A DNA stretch of 64,000 nucleotides from Armatimonas sp. (GCA_049840835.1 JASGJG010000001.1:199282-263281); one strand, 5' to 3'. Shown: positions 4,203-63,025, counted from the first letter of the stretch. The notes: generated by a model from the sequence alone, not told the origin. A program made the numbers and translations.

Positions 4203-5275
4203 TGGGGTGATGTTGTAACCGTAATCAAATAGCTCTGCTCCGCTGTCTGGAGCAGCAAATGCTGACTATCAGGGTGCCACACAAGGTCGTAAAGCAACTC
4301 CTGCCCCACATAGAGGCAGCGCTGAGCAGATCCGTCGCGGTGGGCTACCCATACTTCGAAGTGAATGGAGGGTTCTGGCCCGGCAATAAAGCGGCCCCAG
4401 AATTTCTGCCCGAAGGCGAGCTCTGTGGTGATGTAGGTTACGACCACATGATTTCCATCGGGGGAAATACTGGTTCCATAGGGGAGCATCATCGTATTGG
4501 TAGAACCATGTTGGAGGGGGAAATCGGCACTCTCACTTACTGTGAAAGGAGCCTGGCTATCTACCGTGTAAAAACGCAATTGCTCCAGCTCAACGAACTC
4601 GGTAAGACCCTCGGGGACTACCTGGTAACTCTCTCTAATAAGAATCTTTCCATCCGGCAGGAGACCACAGGGAGAGCGATGCCAGTTCTCGCTGGAAAGC
4701 GGTGGAAGAGGCACCGAAATACTCTGGCAGTTGAGGTCATAAATAAAAAGATTCGTGGCTGTTGTGGATGCCCAGTGCGAGGAATTCTGGAGCCAGAGAG
4801 GACCCGCTTCCAGAGGCTTATAGGCTGGCTGTGGAGTAGTGGTGAGTTTTCCATGGTCATCCATGAGCCAGCTACGCTGTTTTATAGGCCATAACCCTTC
4901 GGTGTAATCCCGCTGCTGAAATAGTATCTGTGTAATTAGAGTCCATTTTCCATCAGGAGAGAAACTCCAGTAAAGGGACTCCTGATCTGTGCCGTTCAGG
5001 CGCTTTTTCAAGATTCCCGGTGGTTGGGGTAGCGGTTTTGCTGGGAAAGTAACACCTGTAGAGGGATTCCAGAGAAAGCGTTGTTTTTTGGGAGTGATTA
5101 TCTCCACTGAGCCATCTAGCATCCATTGATACTTGCCCGGCAGAGGTACCGGAACCGCTTTTAAGTCCTTTAAAGAAGGATAGGTAGATTGCGGTGAGCT
5201 ATGCCGGGCCGAACGAAAAGCCACTCCAATACAGAAGGCGATTCCTAAAACAATGACTCCTAATTGCCACTTCAT
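4199..5275 (-). CDS. secreted/membrane-anchored hypothetical protein (possible beta-propeller)
   Basis: 358 aa; N-terminal signal/anchor MKWQLGVIVLGIAFCIGVAF; W/Y/G-rich repeats. Confidence 0.5.
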   Translation of the reverse strand: MKWQLGVIVLGIAFCIGVAFRSARHSSPQSTYPSLKDLKAVPVPLPGKYQWMLDGSVEIITPKKQRFLWNPSTGVTFPAKPLPQPPGILKKRLNGTDQESLYWSFSPDGKWTLITQILFQQRDYTEGLWPIKQRSWLMDDHGKLTTTPQPAYKPLEAGPLWLQNSSHWASTTATNLFIYDLNCQSISVPLPPLSSENWHRSPCGLLPDGKILIRESYQVVPEGLTEFVELEQLRFYTVDSQAPFTVSESADFPLQHGSTNTMMLPYGTSISPDGNHVVVTYITTELAFGQKFWGRFIAGPEPSIHFEVWVAHRDGSAQRCLYVGQELLYDLVWHPDSQHLLLQTAEQSYLITVTTSPH

Positions 5276-14974: not shown

Positions 14975-16372
14975 TTACACAAACGGGTTCTGGCGCTGGA
15001 TTTTCTCGGCCTCCTCAGGCCGCGTGGAGCGAATCCAGGCGATATAGCCACGGGCATAGGCCATGGAATCACGGCCTATCTTCGCGCTCATGGCATCCGG
15101 TCCCTCAGTTCGGCAATGATGCATGAACGCCCGGAATTTACGAAGGTCCTCACGAGAGACACGAGCCTGTCCTTCGAAACCCTGGTTTACGACCAGGCCT
15201 GTTACGCTCTGGCGCTGGCGAGTGCGAAGTACCTGGGTTTTGTCTTCGTTGATAACGAGGTTCTCCTCTGTAACGATCTTGCGAACCAGCGTGAGCAATG
15301 CGCCCACAGGAGCATCCGGCTTTTCGTGAGAGAAGGTCAGGTCGTCGGCGTAGCGGGTGTAGACAAACCCCAGGCTTTTCGCGGCGCCTTCGATGCGCGC
15401 ATCCAGCCCCAGGCAGAGCCAGTTCGTCAGCGCTGGCGATGTACAGGCACCCTGTGGCGTGGCACGCTCACCCACAGCGACGAACTTGCGCTCGCCATCG
15501 AAAGTAATACAAACGCGTGGAGAGTCGGTGCAGAGCAGGGCCAGCAGGGTGGCCACGCTCTCGCCATAGCCCAGCTTCTCGAACATCCCTTTCACGCGTC
15601 GCCAGGTCACGCTGGGGAAGAAGTCTTTCAGGTCTGTCTTGACTACCACAGCCTTGTCTACATGGGGCGCGGCGTTTTTCTGCACGGAGCAACCGGGCGC
15701 AAACGCCATTGCCGCCTGGTGCGGCGTGAGCGTTTCTAAGATCTCTTTGAGAATCCAGCTCTGCGCCACCCGCAGGGTGCGTTTGGGCGACGAAAGCACC
15801 CGTAGCCCCCCCTTTTTCTTAGGAATCGTAAAACGGGAGTAGTGCCCGGTTTTATCCGCGCGGCTCTGATAGCTCAGCCAGGCCAGCTTCTCGGGGGGCA
15901 GGCCAATAGCAGTTGCCAGCTCCTCAGGAGTGTTTACGATAGGCAGTCCACGCTTCTGCAGCGCTTCGGCATCGCTGGTAGTGCCGCTCAGGCCGCCGGA
16001 GACACCGACGCCCAAGTGTGGCAGGCTTTTCTTGCGCCAGGCGGCATCTGCTTCTTTCTTCTTCTGGCGCTCAGCGGCGCGAACTTTGGCTTTCTCTGTA
16101 CGCTCAGCACGCACACGCTCGATACGCTTGCGCCGAATCTCAGCCAGCAGGCGCGGTACATCGCCGCCCTCGCTGATTTCTTTTTCAATCTGGCGTAGCT
16201 CACGGCTGAATTTGGCGCGCTCTTCATAGAGCGGCTTCAACGTAGCTTCTATCTCGGCATACTCGGCGGCTTTTTCTGGGGATGGTGGCCAGTAGCCCAG
16301 CCGGGTCATCTCTTCTCGGATGAACCCGGACTTGCCCAGCTCGCCCATACGCTTTTTCTGATCTCCGGTCAT
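14975..16372 (-). CDS. retron-type reverse transcriptase with ~170-aa N-terminal basic coiled-coil extension
   Basis: 465 aa; motif 1-2 FTIPKKKGGLRVLSSP; retron-specific NAAPHV + DLKDFFPS (cf. Ec86 NATPHI..DLEDFFPS); motif 4 PQGACTSPALTN; motif 5 YTRYADDLTFS; LVINEDKT; conserved VTG (RQSVTGLVV). Confidence 0.9.
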   Translation of the reverse strand: MTGDQKKRMGELGKSGFIREEMTRLGYWPPSPEKAAEYAEIEATLKPLYEERAKFSRELRQIEKEISEGGDVPRLLAEIRRKRIERVRAERTEKAKVRAAERQKKKEADAAWRKKSLPHLGVGVSGGLSGTTSDAEALQKRGLPIVNTPEELATAIGLPPEKLAWLSYQSRADKTGHYSRFTIPKKKGGLRVLSSPKRTLRVAQSWILKEILETLTPHQAAMAFAPGCSVQKNAAPHVDKAVVVKTDLKDFFPSVTWRRVKGMFEKLGYGESVATLLALLCTDSPRVCITFDGERKFVAVGERATPQGACTSPALTNWLCLGLDARIEGAAKSLGFVYTRYADDLTFSHEKPDAPVGALLTLVRKIVTEENLVINEDKTQVLRTRQRQSVTGLVVNQGFEGQARVSREDLRKFRAFMHHCRTEGPDAMSAKIGRDSMAYARGYIAWIRSTRPEEAEKIQRQNPFV

Positions 16373-16412
16373 GCGATGTCTCCAATAAATATCGAGCCCG
16401 TGCCGATTCGTG

Positions 16413-16536
16413 CCAGGACGGTAAACGTCCGGCTATAGGCACTTCGTGCCGTCTCCCTGCAGGAGGGGTTTGGCCTGATTTGGCCGCAGGCCACGGCGGG
16501 CTTGTCCGCCACATAGCCGGACGTTTACCGTCCTGG
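16413..16536 (-). ncRNA. perfect 24-nt inverted repeats flanking a 76-nt multi-hairpin core, 40 nt upstream of RT start: candidate compact retron msr-msd (a1/a2-like repeats) or RT-operon regulatory structure
   Basis: ccaggacggtaaacgtccggctat (16413..16436) is exact reverse complement of atagccggacgtttaccgtcctgg (16513..16536); core contains small hairpins ggcgg..ccgcc, ggcc..ggcc, ctcctgcaggag. Confidence 0.45.
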
Positions 16537-16557
16537 AAACAGGAGCCAGATTCGTCA

Positions 16558-17733
16558 TCACGCCTTGCCTTCTTTCATATCCAGGAACTGCTGTTCGGTG
16601 AGCACGGGCACGCCCAGCTCGTTGGCTTTGGCTAGCTTGCTTCCCGCTTTGTCCCCTGCTACCAGGTAGGTGGTGTTCTTGCTCACGCTGCCGGAGGCTT
16701 TTCCGCCCAGCTGCTCCACGATAGACTCGGCTTGCTCACGGGTGAAGAGGGTGAGTGCTCCTGTGAACACAAAGGTCTGCCCGGTGAAGTCTACGGTCTT
16801 GCCCGATGCCCCTGTGGCAGTCGCTTTCGCGCCGATAAGGTCGCGGCTTGCCAGGGCGATAGCCGCGACAATATGGGCGCAGGGGCCTTTGCGCAGTTTC
16901 TCGCGGCGGAAGAAGGCGCAGGTGCAGGAGGCGAACTTGGCGCGGCCATCGGCATCCAGGTCCAGAGTGACGATGAACTTGCGCTCACGCTTGCTCTCGC
17001 CCCCTCGCACCGAAGCACGAAGTCGGGTGATGCCTTCGCCGGGGGCTCCGAAGAACCCGCCACCATCTTCATCCTCCTCTTCGCCGGGTTTCAGGAACGT
17101 TACGCCGCCAGAGTTCACGATACGGGCAGCCAGGCGAGACGGCTGGCTTTCATCGTCCTCTTCGGGTGCGGGGAATGGGAGGAGCTGGCGCCAACGGTAG
17201 CGGTTAGTGGGCAGGTCGAACATCGCGCGACCCTGGCGACAGAGGCGCTGAAGCGCAGCGGTCGCGGCCTCTCGGGATAGGTCGGAGGAGCTGAAAAGTT
17301 CTTCGGGGGTAAGCGCCAGACGCTTTTCTAAAACCTCGGCGGCAGCCGCGACATCACCTTCACTGGCACCACCTACAGCGGCGAGTACATCGAAGCGAGC
17401 GGCGGCGGACCAGTCGTTTTTGGTCCACCCGGAGATACCTAAATCGAACCGATGGCCCTGCAGCGTGACGGACCAATAGGATGGCATGCCGGTGCCGAGT
17501 AATCGAACATCTACCCGGTCGGCGTGGGGAAGCAGGTCGATCAAGGTCATCAGGCGGCGGCGGCCCCACAGGCGGATTTCCTGCGCCGCGCTACCCTGCC
17601 AGCGGTGGGTGTGCTCTTTGATCTCTATTCCCCACGGCTCCACGATGACTTTGGGATACTCACCCGGCTCCAGAATAAACTTCAGCGAGCGAGGGCTTTC
17701 TTTCTCTCGCTGCCCTTCCAGCACGGCCAGCAC
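16558..17733 (-). CDS. SWIM zinc-finger + C-terminal BRCT domain protein
   Basis: 391 aa; SWIM CxCx(n)CxH: [22 protein letters not shown]; C-terminus [69 protein letters not shown] closely resembles LigA-type BRCT. Confidence 0.75.
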
Positions 17734-17738
17734 GTCAG

Positions 17739-18539
17739 CTAGGGTATCTGGCGAGAGCGTGACATCGGTGCCGGGAAACGTGGCGGCGGACTGTACCTGG
17801 AGGAAGCCGCGAATCCAGGTGGGGGCAGGTCGATTTTCTTTTCGTAGCGCTCGCCCGCACCCGTCGCTATAGACACGCCGCCCGAACCTACATTGAGAAA
17901 TGCTGGGCGATAGCTGCGCACGCGCCGAATCTCATCGGCCAGCGCACGGGAGTAATCCACATTGGTGGTACCGAAGACAGTCTCGCCAAATGTATCTAGC
18001 TTTTCAAAGGGCACCGTCACGCGGCCATAGCTGGACTCATCGATAGAGAAGACCTCGAAGACCACAGCATCCGGGTGCACGGAAACCACCGGGTCTAAGA
18101 CCCACCAGGCGTCTGAGTCGTTTTTATGAAGCCAGGCGAAGTACTCCCCACGCTTTTGATAAAAATCCGAAGTTTCGGTCTTGCGCTCCAGGGGCTGAAT
18201 ATCTCGGTCCAAATCCTTCAGAGTCTTCCGAAGGGCATCACGGCGATCCATGAGGCCAGGCACGCGCTTTAGAAACTCGCCGCGCTCGGCTTGTAGCTCT
18301 TCTAAGTAGCGTGCCTGCACCCAGTTCTGGTAGGCCGTGTGGTCTTTCTCTTTGCGGCGCAGATCACTGGTCACAGTGGCATAGAGCGCCAGCATGACCC
18401 TGGCATAGGCCCTGCTGTCCTTGATCTGTGCGCTAAGCTGCACGCCGGGGCGGTGTAGCTCGGCGGAGACAGACATCTTCAGGCCAGAATTATCCCAGGT
18501 GGCGCTGGATGGTTTGGCATAGGCTTGTGTGACGTTCAT
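17739..18539 (-). CDS. hypothetical 266-aa protein within RT operon
   Basis: ORF translationally coupled on both sides (4-nt overlap with upstream gene, 5-nt gap to downstream); no family recognised. Confidence 0.5.
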
Positions 18540-21500
18540 TGAGCTATCTCCATTCCGTCGATGACTTCTCCGGCAAGGGCGCGCTTAACTAGTTGGCTCA
18601 GCGCCCACTCGGCATCTTTCGGCGAAGTCTTCTGCCGGGCAAGTACGAGCAGGGCGGCAGTGTCCATGGTCGGGCGAGCTTCTTGCCGCGCTTTGATTTT
18701 CTCCTTAGCTCGGCGTGCTCGGCGTCGGGTTTTGAGTACAGCAGCATCGAAGGCAGGCGCATCGATTTCCGCACCGGTCTCCGCCACGAAGTCCTGCATC
18801 TCGGGGTCGTCGTGCTCCAGCAGGGAGGTCAGTATCTGTTCGGCGGGCAGAGTTGCCTGTCGCGCTGTCACAAACTCCCGGCCCCGGGCACGTACGGAGC
18901 GGGCCGGACTGTCGCAGAGCGCCAGCGCCGCGCCATACTCGTCCAGACCACCAGGGGGCAGGTTATCGAAGTAGCCCGCGCCGAGCTTGATCGCATCCGG
19001 TACTTCGGACTCTAATAAGTGCAGCGCGAACGGCATAGTGAGTGGGCGCTTAGCGACCTCGGCAACTCCGATAGCACGAATTTCGCTGAGGGAATGCGTA
19101 GCCGCGAGAAGGCGCAGGCTATCGCTCTCACCAATCATCTCCTGGTGCCGCTCAGCCCAGCGACCCAGGAGCGGACCGAAGGCGACGGCTCGGATACCCA
19201 GCAGCACCTCGCCGTCTGTCAGACCGAGTAGTGTGTTTGCGAACTCGTCGTCATTCAACAAGCGGGCTTCCAGGACTTCGCCGCCCGCTTCTGGTAAGGC
19301 GCGTTCTACGGCTTCCCAGAAAGGTAGCAGGCGAATACCTTCCACCAGGTTCTGCAAAAGCCCGCGGCGCAAGCGCCCCCAGCTTGCATCGCTGGCTGCC
19401 GCACTCAATCGGAGCACTACATCAAGTGACAAGGTCTGGCTCAGGCTCTTGAACGTTTTGGCATCTAAAGCCGCCACTAAGAAGGGGCGCTCCTGCAGTG
19501 CCTGCTGGAATTCCTCATTGGGAATGTACTTCGCCAGTAGTGCCAGTGCGTGTGGCGAGGTCATGGCAGTTTCCAGGGAACTTGTGAGCACATTCGCGCT
19601 TAGAAGCGCGCGCCAGACTATAGGGGCAGCTTCGGCGGCGACTTTATGCACCGCCAGGAAACGCCACCAGGCCGCCCGCGTGAAAGCGCCATTGTTATCG
19701 TTGTTAATCAGCTTCCACTGCCACCACCAGACATTGGAGTTGCCTCCTTTGCGCATTACCTCAGCGAGGACATCCAGGGCCGCTTCACGCGCCTCTACGT
19801 TCTTGACACCTTCCAGATCCGAGAGCCAGTCTTCGACTTCGCCATGCTTGAGGGTTCTAAGGCGGGCCAAGGCCAGTTCTCTAAGAGCGCCGCCGCCATC
19901 CAGCAGCATCACAAGCCAGCCTGATTGCATCTGCGGCCCCGCGACCTCAGGGAAGCGCTCTGCCAGAAGCGCTAGAGCGGCTCGCTCACGGGCAGAGGTC
20001 GGCGTCTCGCTCAGGTGAGAGGCCAGGGCTTTGCAGAACTCGGCGGGGTTCTTGGTGCTGGCTATGCCAGGCTCCAGTTTTGCCCGATTCGCCCGCCCAG
20101 CACGGAACCACACATGGCCCAGAAGTGCGGAAGAGAGCGCTGTGCCATTCTGCACTTTTTGAATCGCTACTCGCACGGCCAGCGCCTGAAGCAAGGCAGA
20201 TGGTGAGGCCAGGTCGGCTATCAGCGCGGCATCTGGCACGGAGGGAAGCTTGCGCTTGGCGACGCGAAGCTGGCGAGCTACCATTTCACGGGCGCCCCAA
20301 CCGGCTTTCGGATCGGTGTAGATGCTCTCGGAAAGCTCCGGGCGAGCATCCCAGGCTTCTGGACAGAGCTCCTCGCGACGACGCAGATTGAGGCTTGGAC
20401 CAGGAGTTAGTGAGACCACACCACGCCCGTGGTGCGCCTGTCGCAGCCGTCCGCCGCCACCGTAAATAACCTCTGCCAGCGCCCAGTTGTGATTCAGGTC
20501 GAACCCATCCGAGGCTTTCAGCGTGGCATGAGCCAGCTCCACATAGGCGGTGCGACCAGTCTTGGCCAGAGTTTTCAGCAAGCGCCGGGTGCGGCGCTTC
20601 ATGTAGCCAATCGTTGGACCGCTGGGAGCGGCGCCCAACTGAACCGGGCGTGCTTCCTGAGAAGCGAGAGGCTGTTGCCACACGCGCCCTCCCTGCCAGT
20701 TACCGGTACAGACAATCAAGCCGTTGCCGGTACAGACCGCTCCCTCAGGACCGATACGCCAGCGCTCTATCTTGGGTACGCCTTTGTCATCCACGAAGAC
20801 ACATCGGCTGTTATAGGAAGTCGCGAAGATAGCACGTCGTCCCAGGGTGATTGCTTTGACCTCACCACTGATATAGTCCAGGGTGCACTTGCCAGTCTCT
20901 GTCAGAGTGTCACCGCTATAGGAATAGACATGGCAGGTACGCTCCCACCGGTTGGATTCCGGCAACACAGCAATAAAGCCATCACCTCCAATAGCAGCCT
21001 CGGGCTTGATAGTAATAGTGTTGCTCTGTTTGGGCCGGGCCGGATCGGAAAGATCGATAAACGAGATTCCCTCAGCGCGGGGAAGGCCCTTTAGGGAGAG
21101 ACCACGACCACTCTGGTGAACAATAACTCCACCTACGGCGCTCCATAAATTCGCGCCACTATCCAGGCTCAGCGCAGACTGGCGGGTCAGTACGCCACCC
21201 TCTGAGAGGGTATAGACCAGCAACTCTGGGCTTTTGCCACCTGTAAGAACGCAGAGAAGCGAACCGCTTCGTACAACCGCTTTTAGCTCCGGCGCGTCTA
21301 CTTTCTCTGCAGCAACTCGCGTTACATCTTTGCCAGAGACTTTCCAGGTTATGAGCCAGGTACCGGTTTTATCTGACTGCCCGGCAATACAGTAAGAACC
21401 CAGAGGGACAATCTGCTTGACTTCCGCCCCTATATCTTTTGAGGCTAAGCGCTCTGTTTTCAGGCGCTCCGCATCTAGCTGATAGACCTGAAGGTTTCGG

Positions 21501-21787
21501 TCTCGCCAGCCATCGCCTCCCAGGCCCCAGAGAAGCCGACCATCTGCGGTTTCGAGAATGGGCAGGTAGCGTGCGTTCTTGAACTTCAGCGCTTCTGGGG
21601 TGGCATAGGGATCGGCCTGCGCGGCATCTAGGCGGGCAATGAGCGCTCCTAGGCGGGAAATATCTTCGCTAGGGTTTGCTTCTAATTGCTTGTAGAGAGA
21701 TTTCAGAGTCCGCCAGCTTCCATATTTCAGCGGAAGGGTGCGGATAGCATCGGGAGTAGGAAGGGCGTCGTTGGGCATAGCTCTCAC
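18536..21787 (-). CDS. 1083-aa repeat protein: N-terminal beta-propeller-like region, C-terminal alpha-helical (ARM/HEAT-like) repeats; first gene of RT operon (GTG start at 21787 or ATG at 21778)
   Basis: Long ORF with G/W-rich beta-strand repeats in first ~450 aa and Leu/Ala-rich helical repeats afterwards; no enzymatic motif found. Confidence 0.6.
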   Translation of the reverse strand: MRAMPNDALPTPDAIRTLPLKYGSWRTLKSLYKQLEANPSEDISRLGALIARLDAAQADPYATPEALKFKNARYLPILETADGRLLWGLGGDGWRDRNLQVYQLDAERLKTERLASKDIGAEVKQIVPLGSYCIAGQSDKTGTWLITWKVSGKDVTRVAAEKVDAPELKAVVRSGSLLCVLTGGKSPELLVYTLSEGGVLTRQSALSLDSGANLWSAVGGVIVHQSGRGLSLKGLPRAEGISFIDLSDPARPKQSNTITIKPEAAIGGDGFIAVLPESNRWERTCHVYSYSGDTLTETGKCTLDYISGEVKAITLGRRAIFATSYNSRCVFVDDKGVPKIERWRIGPEGAVCTGNGLIVCTGNWQGGRVWQQPLASQEARPVQLGAAPSGPTIGYMKRRTRRLLKTLAKTGRTAYVELAHATLKASDGFDLNHNWALAEVIYGGGGRLRQAHHGRGVVSLTPGPSLNLRRREELCPEAWDARPELSESIYTDPKAGWGAREMVARQLRVAKRKLPSVPDAALIADLASPSALLQALAVRVAIQKVQNGTALSSALLGHVWFRAGRANRAKLEPGIASTKNPAEFCKALASHLSETPTSARERAALALLAERFPEVAGPQMQSGWLVMLLDGGGALRELALARLRTLKHGEVEDWLSDLEGVKNVEAREAALDVLAEVMRKGGNSNVWWWQWKLINNDNNGAFTRAAWWRFLAVHKVAAEAAPIVWRALLSANVLTSSLETAMTSPHALALLAKYIPNEEFQQALQERPFLVAALDAKTFKSLSQTLSLDVVLRLSAAASDASWGRLRRGLLQNLVEGIRLLPFWEAVERALPEAGGEVLEARLLNDDEFANTLLGLTDGEVLLGIRAVAFGPLLGRWAERHQEMIGESDSLRLLAATHSLSEIRAIGVAEVAKRPLTMPFALHLLESEVPDAIKLGAGYFDNLPPGGLDEYGAALALCDSPARSVRARGREFVTARQATLPAEQILTSLLEHDDPEMQDFVAETGAEIDAPAFDAAVLKTRRRARRAKEKIKARQEARPTMDTAALLVLARQKTSPKDAEWALSQLVKRALAGEVIDGMEIAQ

Positions 21788-21827
21788 CGAACTGGGGAAG
21801 TACCTTCAGAGGGTAGCTATTTTTGTC

Positions 21828-22060
21828 GCTACTATCTCCCCGAGGACCGGTGACGGCCACTGTAGGAGCCGGACGGACAAGTAGTGTACCGTCGGTGGTG
21901 GACGTGTCGGATCAGCGCTATCGACGGTACACTACTTGTCCGTCCGGCTCTGAGTCGAGACGACATCCGGTGGCGTGAAATCAGCTTCACGGCAACCGCT
22001 GCGAAACACAGCGTGTGGGTGGCAGCAAGCTGCCTCCCGTGCTAACGATGTATCCACCCT
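21828..22060. ncRNA. structured repeat unit A (candidate ncRNA, possibly retron ncRNA on minus strand) immediately upstream of the 1083-aa gene
   Basis: Second copy 348 bp away (unit B); 29-bp perfect stem 21866..21894 / 21922..21950 enclosing conserved loop ggtggacgtgtcggatcagcgc; further small conserved hairpins; stem sequences differ from unit B by fully compensatory changes. Confidence 0.5.
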
Positions 22061-22175
22061 CTGAAGTTTTCCCGAAGGGGATTGTCTCCCCGTCGAGTTT
22101 CCCACTCGGATTTCTTCGGGGAATCCGGAAAGTCCTTGTTGGAAATCGCACAAGAAATTCCAAAGGCAGTATTTC

Positions 22176-22402
22176 GCTACTATCTCCCCAGGGACCGGCG
22201 GTGGCCACTGTAGGAGCCGCGGGGTTCAATCGCGGCCCTGGATGGGTGGACGTGTCGAATCAGCGCCTGTCCAGGGCCGCGATTGAACCCCGCGGCTCTG
22301 AGTCGAGACAGCGTCCGGTGGTGTGAAGTCAGCTTCACGGCGACTGCTGCGAAACACAGCAGGGAGAAGGTGGCAAGCCACCTTCCAGTGCTAACGATAC
22401 TC
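22176..22402. ncRNA. structured repeat unit B (tandem copy of unit A with covarying stems)
   Basis: Same flanks gctactatctcccc..ggccactgtaggagcc and ggctctgagtcgagac..gtgaag.cagcttcac..gctgcgaaacacagc; long stem 22214..22241 / 22271..22298 has different sequence but same structure; small stem ggtggcaagccacc vs ggcagcaagctgcc also covaries. Confidence 0.5.
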
Positions 22403-22451
22403 CTGCCTTTGGAATTACATGCTTCTTCGGGTGAAAGACCGGGAATTCCTG

Positions 22452-23684
22452 CTAAAATGTATTTATTCTTGCAACTACATCCCCATCTTGAGTAGCCTCA
22501 TAGACATGGGAGTTGTTATTCTTAGCGGGAATCGGGCTTCCGCCGTTATCTTTCCCGTCTGGCCCCACGCTCCAGAGCCGATAACCATCCGACTTCTTTT
22601 CGTAGTGCAGTGGCTGGTTCTGGTTAAAGGGGTCTGCCGGGGCATCGAAACTTGCCGGAATGCTCTGCGCCTTGATCTTTAGGCAACCACGAAGCAGAGC
22701 AGAGTCTGTGAGGTTGCGGGTGGTATTGAAGTAGGCCTGCTCGAACACCGGAGCCAGAATCTGATTGATAGTATCTCCGGGAGGCTGCGGCATTACGCCG
22801 CGTGTATAAGGGCGGCTCCAGTAGTCTTCTAGAGTGTCGTAGTACTGACCGCTTGCTTTCCAGGCTTTCCCCTTATCGGTGAGCGCCAGAGCTAGCATCA
22901 GTTTGCCCTGCTCAGCCCCGTTTTCGGTATTCCCATTGGTAGGGGTAACGAAATCAGCGGGTTTTATCGTACGGTGAGCCAAATCGGAGATAATCTTCTG
23001 CGCATAGGCTCGCTCGACAGTCAGGAATTTCCTAGAGGGATTACGCCGCTTCTCCAGACTTTCCAGGCGAGTCAAAGCCTCACCCGCTTCTTCTGGGGTG
23101 AGCGCGTCTAGCTGATCCCAGAGAGCCTTACGCCCTATAGTCTCACAGGCTGTGCCAACCAGGTATCCAATTATGGGACCATCGCCGCCAACCATGATGC
23201 CCATTTCAATGGCATCCAATGCGCACCGAATCGCCTCTTTACGATTGCCCATCTCAGCATAGGTTGCTGAGGCAAGGGCCAGCTGGCGGGCCAGCTCTCT
23301 GTGTTCCGCATACTGCGGAAAGGTCTGTGCCATCGGGTTATGCCAGTCAATCGGAGTGGCATAGCTCTGGTTCAGTGCCTCGCGAACACGGGTTATAACC
23401 TTCTCATTGGCAGCCAGGTTCTTCTGGCGCTCCGCCAGCGGCATCTTGAGGGTATCCTCGAAACGTGTTTTCGGTTTCTCCCAGGTGTTTACCCGCAGGT
23501 TGTAGGCACTCCGAAGTGTCTCCATGGCGTTCGGCGCGGGAATGCTCTGCGGTGGTGGCACAAAGTCAGGAACAGTATTGAGTTTGCGATCTACCCCTAC
23601 CCAGGCCAGCACCAGCGTGGGGACCAGGATTCCGAAGCTTATCAGGGCGCGTTCTCCGCGCGTGAAGCGTTTCTCTTGGCTCAT
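22452..23684 (-). CDS. membrane-anchored hypothetical protein with pseudopilin-like C-terminus
   Basis: 410 aa; N-terminal TM segment; C-terminal ..GYRLWSVGPDGKDNGG.. resembles type II secretion GspG-like pseudopilin tail. Confidence 0.5.
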   Translation of the reverse strand: MSQEKRFTRGERALISFGILVPTLVLAWVGVDRKLNTVPDFVPPPQSIPAPNAMETLRSAYNLRVNTWEKPKTRFEDTLKMPLAERQKNLAANEKVITRVREALNQSYATPIDWHNPMAQTFPQYAEHRELARQLALASATYAEMGNRKEAIRCALDAIEMGIMVGGDGPIIGYLVGTACETIGRKALWDQLDALTPEEAGEALTRLESLEKRRNPSRKFLTVERAYAQKIISDLAHRTIKPADFVTPTNGNTENGAEQGKLMLALALTDKGKAWKASGQYYDTLEDYWSRPYTRGVMPQPPGDTINQILAPVFEQAYFNTTRNLTDSALLRGCLKIKAQSIPASFDAPADPFNQNQPLHYEKKSDGYRLWSVGPDGKDNGGSPIPAKNNNSHVYEATQDGDVVARINTF

Positions 23685-62225: not shown

Positions 62226-62252
62226 GCCGCGACTACTCTAAGAATTACATAT

Positions 62253-62375
62253 CGAGGCGTAGCTCAGTAGTAGAGCAATGGAATATCCTCTCGTCCTCTT
62301 GTCCGGTATCCGGGCCGCTTGAGTAGGGTTATCGTTAATCCATAGGTCGCAAGGTGCGAATCCTTGCCGCCTCGG
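62253..62375 (+). ncRNA. Y-RNA-like (YrlA-type) tRNA-like ncRNA 1
   Basis: acceptor-like pairing cgaggcg/cgcctcg, D-arm tagctcagtagtagagc, T-arm caagg-tgcgaat-ccttg, anticodon-arm position replaced by ~50-nt conserved insert cttgtccggtatccgggccg..ggttatcg; located upstream of Ro60 gene. Confidence 0.55.
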
Positions 62376-62879: not shown

Positions 62880-62904
62880 TAGAAGATTTAGAGAATGGAA
62901 TATC

Positions 62905-63025
62905 AGGGGTGTAGCTCAGTGGTAGAGCACAAGGCAAACTCGTCGCGCTTACTTGTCCGGTATCCGGGCCGCCAGTGATGGTTATCGCAACCTTGCCGTC
63001 GTGGGTTCAAATCCCATTACCCCTG
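62905..63025 (+). ncRNA. Y-RNA-like tRNA-like ncRNA 4
   Basis: acceptor aggggtg/tacccct, D-arm tagctcagtggtagagc, T-arm gtggg-ttcaaat-cccat, insert ttgtccggtatccgggccg..ggttatcg. Confidence 0.55.

Follow-up and report, generated by a model that had tools for sequence, protein, structure and literature searches.

We found that a stretch of 64,000 nucleotides from Armatimonas sp. (GCA_049840835.1 JASGJG010000001.1:199282-263281; hereafter the window) most probably contains two head-to-tail type XIII retron msr-msd genes on its minus strand, which would share one reverse transcriptase (RT) and are predicted to give two hairpin DNAs. We give this reading a probability of roughly 0.82. That both units are retron msr-msd units is held with high confidence. 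A sequence-only reading of the same DNA had pointed to two retron ncRNAs, but had left their identity and their strand unassigned. Both were assigned in this study, the elements being read as type XIII retron ncRNAs of the minus strand, on the basis of the type XIII operon, the private closing arms (a1/a2), the UUAGC motif with the predicted priming G, the msr and msd hairpins and, for the strand, the G.U pairs and the promoters of relatives. We infer that both units would be transcribed, primed and used for msDNA synthesis, and the same holds for any role in defence.

Two structured units upstream of the operon

The intergenic region 21788-22451, between two minus-strand ORFs, contains two homologous units, A and B, that can be aligned over about 260 nt. 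The two tandem structured elements that had been described upstream of the operon were both found there. The features of the region are as follows; R1 is the covariance model described below, and L-numbers denote homologous loci.

21804-22066, minus strand: unit A, complete retron ncRNA (msr-msd), R1 match of 296 bits
22157-22416, minus strand: unit B, complete retron ncRNA (msr-msd), the upstream and promoter-distal copy, R1 match of 278.7 bits covering the full model
21866-21950, minus strand: msd hairpin of unit A, with 29-bp arms (21866-21894 and 21922-21950) and a 27-nt loop
22214-22298, minus strand: msd hairpin of unit B, with 29-bp arms (22214-22242 and 22270-22298) and a 27-nt loop
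22067-22156, minus strand: spacer between B and A, homologous to the leader before the single unit in L001, L002 and L005

Judged from their sequence, units A and B are head-to-tail copies ahead of a single RT operon. Unit A, which lies 25 nt upstream of the first start codon of the operon, formed 83/83 of the model pairs. Unit B formed 82/83, and its RNA fold had an energy of -147 kcal/mol (z -10.9). The fold z-scores of the two units on either strand ranged from -8.8 to -10.9 against shuffles. The 90-nt spacer, by its own fold, was not significant as a structured element (z -1.2). A search with the stem sequences found no further copy of the long stem of A or B within the window.

The units had originally been placed at 21828..22060 and 22176..22402. 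The ends of each unit, however, form a private terminal inverted repeat that closes it, and the true extents are therefore the longer ones listed above. The long stems of 28-29 bp, said to differ in sequence and yet to be perfectly paired, proved to be exact 29-bp inverted repeats in both units. The claim of an identical 27-nt loop, on the other hand, has to be narrowed, since the apical loops of A and B have only a 22-nt core, GGTGGACGTGTCG[G/A]ATCAGCGC, in common, with one mismatch. The covariation reported for a smaller stem was also observed, but the unit labels had been swapped: the small hairpin is ggcagcaagctgcc in A and ggtggcaagccacc in B. In the model-based alignment of A with B, 53 of the 83 shared pairs were identical and 26 were changed on both sides and yet paired. 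Of the rest, 3 had one-sided changes and were still paired, and 1 was broken.

The operon and its proteins

Downstream of the units, on the minus strand, the genes of the operon are arranged in the order HEAT/WGR protein, SWIM-BRCT protein and RT.

18536-21778, minus strand: HEAT/ARM-WGR-like accessory protein of about 1080 aa (PADLOC WGR_XIII 5.8e-20, HEAT-ARM_XIII 1.1e-14)
16558-18539, minus strand: SWIM-BRCT accessory gene (PADLOC SWIM_XIII 7.6e-61 and 1.7e-83 for its two halves; Pfam SWIM and BRCT)
14975-16372, minus strand: retron reverse transcriptase of 465 aa (PADLOC RT_XIII 8.7e-147 over residues 7-461; RVT_1 3.3e-22)

The start codon of the HEAT/ARM-WGR-like gene, the ATG at 21778, was picked by homology with L001. 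This first gene of the operon is syntenic in L001, L002 and L092-L097. The translation of the RT gene contains the motifs NAAPH (NAxxH), RYADD (YADD) and SVTGLVVN (VTG). This is the single RT in the window, where no second YADD motif was found, and its homologues are mostly from Armatimonadota. The type XIII gene set was defined by Mestre et al. 2020, with Mx162, Mx65, Sa163 and Ne144 as members (PMC7736814). By its sequence, the present system is a type XIII retron of the Mx162 family.

Two features of the operon are different from the corresponding locus L001. First, the SWIM-BRCT gene, which is an intact 661-aa ORF in L001, is split into ORFs of 266 aa and 391 aa by a 1-nt deletion in a C5 run near 17823/17824. 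The frameshift may be a homopolymer sequencing error or may mark a real pseudogene. Second, an insertion of 185 nt (16373-16557) separates the SWIM-BRCT stop codon from the RT start. It is absent from L001, where the two genes overlap (GTGA). Within this insertion, an inverted repeat of 24 nt without mismatch, CCAGGACGGTAAACGTCCGGCTAT, occupies 16413-16436 and 16513-16536, and the insertion may be a small MITE/REP-like element.

These facts suggest that the system may be decaying or inactive here, unless the frameshift is a sequencing error. We put the odds of an active system in this genome at about even. It would be a further step to regard the whole retron as a relic, as an inactive system whose ncRNAs and RT look intact, and we consider this doubtful. 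The two halves of the SWIM-BRCT gene are 93-95% identical to L001 and contain no further stops, and the RT is of full length and 92% identical to that of L001. In addition, the nature of the two elements as msr-msd units would be unaffected even if the operon were a relic.

Conservation of the paired structure in homologous units

Homologous units were taken from the loci around close RT homologues (RT identity of 92% for L001, 80% for L002/L003, 77% for L004, 82% for L005 and 53% for L006). Metagenome contigs were added through a conserved ncRNA pattern, five of them with a full unit (L085 and L088-L091) and one truncated (L086), together with six more Armatimonadota loci (L092-L097). Covariance model R1 was built from five units with a hand-specified retron-type structure consisting of a2/a1, an inner CGUUA/UAGCG helix, three msr hairpins, a helix joining msr-3' and msd-3', and the long msd stem. 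It was followed by a model-based realignment of 11 units. The hand-specified structure and the realignment were used because MAFFT alone misaligned the 5' ends of two subgroups.

In the 11 aligned homologues, which include the five-unit set behind R1 so that the counts are biased towards the structure, 97.8% of the cells were paired, compared with 73.3% in shuffles and 34-47% with slid partners, and 52 of the 83 pairs were changed on both sides. None of 500 shuffles (0/500) reached any of these measures. The control with slid partners, and stems whose sequences have nothing in common, argue that the covariation signal is real. In helix 1 (a2/a1), 13/13 pairs were changed on both sides and 96.5% of the cells were paired; helices 3-5, which make up the msr, were supported by covariation; and in helix 8, the 29-bp msd stem, both sides were changed in 28/29 pairs. 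The minus-strand layout that had been outlined from the sequence, with msr-like hairpins followed by a long msd-like hairpin between partially complementary ends, is thus recognized as three msr hairpins, the 29-bp msd stem and the a2/a1 closure. The earlier conclusion that the covariation points to a functional structure and not to a decaying repeat is likewise supported by these 11 homologues.

G.U pairs were found in 15/41 pairs of the closing and msr helices; for instance, U.G occurs at columns 26/250 in 10/11 units. The G.U pairs in a1/a2 and msr would become C.A mismatches if the units were read on the opposite strand. These pairs, the promoters of relatives described below and the orientation of the genes support the minus strand of the window as the RNA strand. 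The msd stem showed no G.U among its 29 pairs across the 11 units of the model-aligned Armatimonadota subfamily. A stem free of G.U is expected if it must also pair as complementary DNA. Mutation by quasipalindrome template switching, however, could be another source of perfect Watson-Crick msd stems, one that requires no selection on a DNA hairpin. In minimum-free-energy folds of 60 units of the broad family, G.U made up 8% of the pairs in the long hairpin domain and 10% elsewhere, which does not discriminate between the two parts. The absence of G.U from the msd stem is therefore claimed for that subfamily alone, as aligned to the model.

Searches of Rfam with gathering scores and with permissive E-values assigned the units to no family and gave only chance-level, sub-threshold microRNA-like matches on the hairpins. 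No type XIII ncRNA model was among the Rfam matches to the units.

Elsewhere in the window, a 121-nt Rfam tRNA match at 62905-63025 had no ARAGORN call, whereas the neighbouring Ile-GAT and Trp-CCA tRNAs were found by both programs. Direct repeats connect 62249-62334 with 62900-62987.

Homologous loci, leaders and promoters

The ncRNA element was found on the operon strand in 17 other loci. Wherever the contig suffices (L001, L002, L005, L006 and L092-L097), it is located upstream of the HEAT/WGR, SWIM-BRCT and RT operon. A search of metagenomes for more copies, which the sequence-only reading had recommended, was carried out with a conserved 19-base pattern. It gave 7 loci with one pattern match each and no extra arrays; one of the 7 (L087) had no nhmmer unit, and the unit of another (L086) was cut by the contig end.

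A well-conserved sigma-70 promoter, TTGCCA-17-TATAAT/TATACT, precedes the 5' closing arm in L006 (4190-4230), L088 and L085, with about 8-10 nt between the two. L090 has just a TAGAAT -10 box upstream of a2. A scan of 21700-22700 for sigma-70 promoters and terminators found nothing on the minus strand of the window. The subgroup to which the window belongs has a conserved leader of about 90 nt without a consensus promoter. Both units would probably be co-transcribed with the operon on the minus strand.

The single unit of L005 (4351-4607) combines an A-type core and msd stem with B-like closing arms (25/32 positions, compared with 19/32 for A). Such a combination is not producible by a single crossover.

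Closing arms, predicted priming sites and msDNAs

The terminal a2/a1 closure is present in both units and consists of 13-14 bp. The arms and the sites predicted from them are listed here; the priming role of the two Gs is a prediction.

22054-22066, minus strand: a2 arm of unit A, CTTCAGAGGGTGG, pairs with 21804-21816
21804-21816, minus strand: a1 arm of unit A, CTACCCTCTGAAG, pairs with 22054-22066
22403-22416, minus strand: a2 arm of unit B, AATTCCAAAGGCAG, pairs with 22157-22170
22157-22170, minus strand: a1 arm of unit B, CTGCCTTTGGAATT, pairs with 22403-22416
22042, minus strand: predicted priming (branch) G of unit A, opposing G at 21829
22391, minus strand: predicted priming (branch) G of unit B, within GUUA-G-CA, opposing G at 22177
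21830-21975, plus strand: predicted msDNA-A, start from the opposing-G rule, roughly 140-165 nt, 3' end approximate
22178-22323, plus strand: predicted msDNA-B, plus-strand sequence starting at 22178, 3' end approximate

The cognate a2/a1 duplex was calculated at -27.0 kcal/mol for unit A, compared with -15.8 kcal/mol for the cross duplex. For unit B, the corresponding energies were -27.7 kcal/mol and, with a1 of unit A, -10.1 kcal/mol. According to these modelled energies, the closing arms of A and B are orthogonal.

The sequence GTTAGC (GUUAGC) directly follows a2 in 11/11 aligned units. Its CGUUA pairs with UAGCG just before a1, so that the G of UUA-G-C comes to lie opposite a second G, which is 213 nt away. 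In retrons, the priming G most commonly belongs to a TAGC located where the a2/a1 stem ends on its inner side (review PMC6868368). The UUAGC context opposite a G in both units matches this rule. When folded as DNA, the predicted cDNA of A gave -50.4 kcal/mol (z -9.0) and that of B -55.1 kcal/mol (z -8.6).

These features would fit the following mechanism. Each unit would fold independently, because its 5' a2 and 3' a1 arms would pair only with each other. The closing stem would put the conserved G of UUA-G-C opposite the second G, and the 2'-OH of that conserved G would serve the single RT as the primer for copying the msd part. The outcome would be two branched RNA-DNA molecules, each with a DNA of the length given above. 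The two DNAs would be alike in their 5' and 3' segments and in the apical loop, and would differ in the core of about 23 bp within the 29-bp stem.

It is also conceivable that the units are no RT templates at all but a cis-regulatory leader, REP/MITE-like palindromes, integron attC-like sites or DGR repeats. Conserved flanks around a variable palindromic core look superficially like attC, both strands fold equally well, and Rfam offers no match. In the loci examined, however, the element is present in one or a few copies per locus, always next to an RT of type XIII and in the same orientation as that RT. The window shows no dispersed copies and has neither an integrase nor cassettes; the differences between A and B are compensated and are not adenine-specific; and the RT belongs to the retrons and not to the DGR clade. 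Moreover, the a1/a2 arms, the opposing G and the msr hairpins are laid out as in retrons. We therefore regard a non-template nature of the units as extremely unlikely.

Age and state of unit B

Outside the long stem and the closing arms, the core of unit A was 95% identical to the L001 unit and 87-88% identical to the L005 and L002 units, compared with 82% identity to unit B. The single units of L001, L002 and L005 are thus orthologues of A (87-95% core identity), and B is about equally distant from A and from these orthologues. It follows that B diverged before these lineages split and is an old paralogue. What L001 has at the same place (4326-4425) is a degraded relic of B. It consists of a2, a fragment of one msr hairpin (GTGAAGCT) and the 3' end with a1, the msd hairpin having been deleted, and the second unit was thus lost in the closest relative.

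The four closest loci that were assessed (L001, L002, L005 and L006) have one unit each. Since most close relatives have a single unit, the second unit appears to be dispensable. Unit A could then be the sole working template, and unit B a redundant duplicate that is being lost and, whether transcribed or not, gives no msDNA that matters. The internal deletions by which L001 lost B would agree with this, as would the lack, in front of B, of a segment of about 50 nt of the leader that precedes A and its orthologues. The state of B itself argues in the opposite direction. Its core has diverged by 18% and branches outside the A-type orthologues, yet nearly all of its pairs and all conserved motifs are retained despite its age, which argues for selection on the structure. 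B still has an intact UUAGC, opposing G and loop core, whereas neutral decay should break the helices, as in L001. Arrays with distinct stems are, in addition, present in about 15 loci (see below). A duplication without maintained pairing, the outcome that had been named as speaking against a functional structure, was not what the homologous loci showed, since B keeps its pairs and the 11 homologues stay paired. We therefore consider it unlikely that A is the only template of consequence, and rather probable that both templates are used now or have been used recently.

Template arrays in other type XIII loci

Arrays were searched for by self-BLAST of 80 diverse type XIII loci from a genome scan, and then with an iterated nhmmer profile and model R1. 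Among roughly 66 loci with at least one unit by nhmmer or by a strong R1 match, 15 arrays were found including that of the window, or about a fifth. They contain 2-3 units and lie upstream of the RT. The arrays other than that of the window are the following.

L013: Beggiatoa
L010, L026 and L059: Saprospiraceae
L035: Bacteroidota, three units
L041, L046 and L053: Acidobacteriota
L051 and L074: Verrucomicrobiales
L064: Hyphomicrobiales
L073: Cyanobacteria
L094 and L097: Armatimonadota-type loci

In most arrays (for example L035, L046, L053, L059, L064 and L074), the msr and the flanks are 92-100% identical between the units, and both arms of the msd stem have been replaced in a central segment. 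This contrast between msr and msd stem is weak or absent in L013, L026, L041 and L073. By cognate versus cross duplex energies, 10/11 of the arrays tested had private closing arms for each unit. The Myxococcaceae and Archangium loci have one unit.

The two units of L013 (2696-2877 and 4147-4327) are 1.45 kb apart and not adjacent. Self-BLAST repeats in L024, L034, L037, L039, L043, L056, L065, L078 and L080 had been candidates for ncRNA arrays and were rejected as coding or simple repeats.

The extra unit might have arisen by reverse transcription of msDNA and its re-integration, instead of by tandem duplication at the DNA level. There is a precedent in the msd-like repeats of Nannocystis exedens, as described in the review PMC6868368 after Lampson and Rice 1997. 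The duplicate in the window, however, includes a2, the whole msr and the leader-like TTCCCGG...CCCGAAGAA, none of which is part of the cDNA, and msr and flanks are 94-100% identical between units within arrays. An origin by re-integration is accordingly judged to be very unlikely.

Sequences of the variable stems

The 8-mer TAGTAGTG was found at the same position of the msd-stem 5' arm in units from distant phyla. It is exact in the 5' arm of 7 units, and also in L035 unit 3 on the 3' arm, while 0.05 exact occurrences were expected from shuffles. The msd stems listed for the motif are those of window unit A (21871-21894), L001, L002, L004, L005, L013 (2696-2877), L035 (2265-2449) and L041 (9304-9488). 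Unit A of the window carries AAGTAGTG, which is one mismatch away from TAGTAGTG. The related k-mers TAGTGTAC and CTAGTAGT recur, for example in L010, L067, L080 and L097 unit 2. Within an array, at most one unit has TAGTAGTG in the 5'-arm orientation; the copy of L035 unit 3 is on the other arm. The recurrence of TAGTAGTG hints at discrete, shared stem 'alleles' and not at free drift.

A possible phage origin of the stems was also considered. Among 50,697 phage records, the stem of B gave chance matches only (E=4) and that of A none, and IMG/VR contained no exact 20-mers of the variable stems. As the variable stems have no phage match, a spacer-like origin is unsupported.

Comparison with known systems

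Mx162, a type XIII retron, was among the first retrons ever found. To our knowledge, the biological role of type XIII retrons is not established. The present system resembles the type XIII retrons (Mxa1/Mx162, Mxa2/Mx65, Sau1/Sa163 and Nex2/Ne144) in the clade of its RT, in the N-terminal extension ahead of RVT_1, in the accessory genes for SWIM-domain and HEAT/ARM-WGR proteins, and in the make-up of its ncRNA, where a1/a2 arms are combined with three msr hairpins and a long hairpin for the msd. The transcript of Mx162 is 241 nt and its msDNA 162 nt (PMC6868368). The span of 213 nt between the opposing Gs is estimated from these two lengths to be close to that of Mx162. The covariance model and the HMM built here also match ncRNAs of Polyangiaceae loci, and the HMM matches those of Archangium and Hyalangium as well.

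In several respects the system is unlike the known type XIII retrons. There are two templates instead of one, and the ncRNA precedes the accessory genes, which puts it about 5.5 kb away from the RT instead of directly before it. The SWIM protein has a C-terminal BRCT domain, and the host lineage is Armatimonadota.

Repeated msr-msd sequences far from any RT have been reported for Retron-Nex1 (Ne160) of Nannocystis exedens, where, in the account given by PMC6868368, they were interpreted as duplication and insertion by a distant RT or as retrotransposition (Lampson and Rice 1997). An array ahead of accessory genes would look as reported there, a likeness drawn from that description. Engineered 'multitron' arrays, in which one RT uses several tandem msr-msd units of a single transcript independently, are a second point of comparison (PMC10370050). 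The window likewise has msr-msd units in tandem and one RT, as read from the sequence alone. The multitrons, however, are synthetic, are derived from the type II retron Eco1 and have repeats that are identical outside the donor, whereas the present array is natural and each of its units has its own closing stem. By analogy only, tandem conserved scaffolds around a variable core also recall CRISPR arrays and DGR repeats. Unlike these, the units have stems without phage matches and show no adenine-specific mutagenesis, and neither Cas nor DGR components are present.

A diversity-generating retroelement was tried as a candidate for the locus and was rejected: changes to any of the four bases occur between the units and are compensated on the two arms, and the RT scores as a retron RT.

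In the papers searched for natural tandem msr-msd arrays, only engineered arrays and the remark on Ne160 came up. None of the reports found presents diverging stems, each with closing arms of its own, as something that recurs. While the retron family itself is known, a recurrent natural template array with divergent msd stems and orthogonal arms seems to be scarcely documented.

Biological implications

As a tentative generalization, type XIII retrons may keep expandable template arrays, in which the msd stem would be an exchangeable specificity cassette and the private arms would ensure independent folding. If this is true, one RT would make a repertoire of msDNAs, each of which would perhaps sense or resist a different phage factor. 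Natural arrays with one RT and 2-3 templates, which differ only in the core of the msd stem and in their private closing arms, point to the duplex sequence of the msDNA as the part under diversifying pressure. Such arrays may explain the old report of repeated msr-msd sequences far from any RT in Nannocystis exedens, as far as it is described in the review cited above. They would be a counterpart in nature to the multitron arrays, which serve for multiplex genome editing, and the orthogonal a1/a2 arms would be a design principle that could be borrowed.
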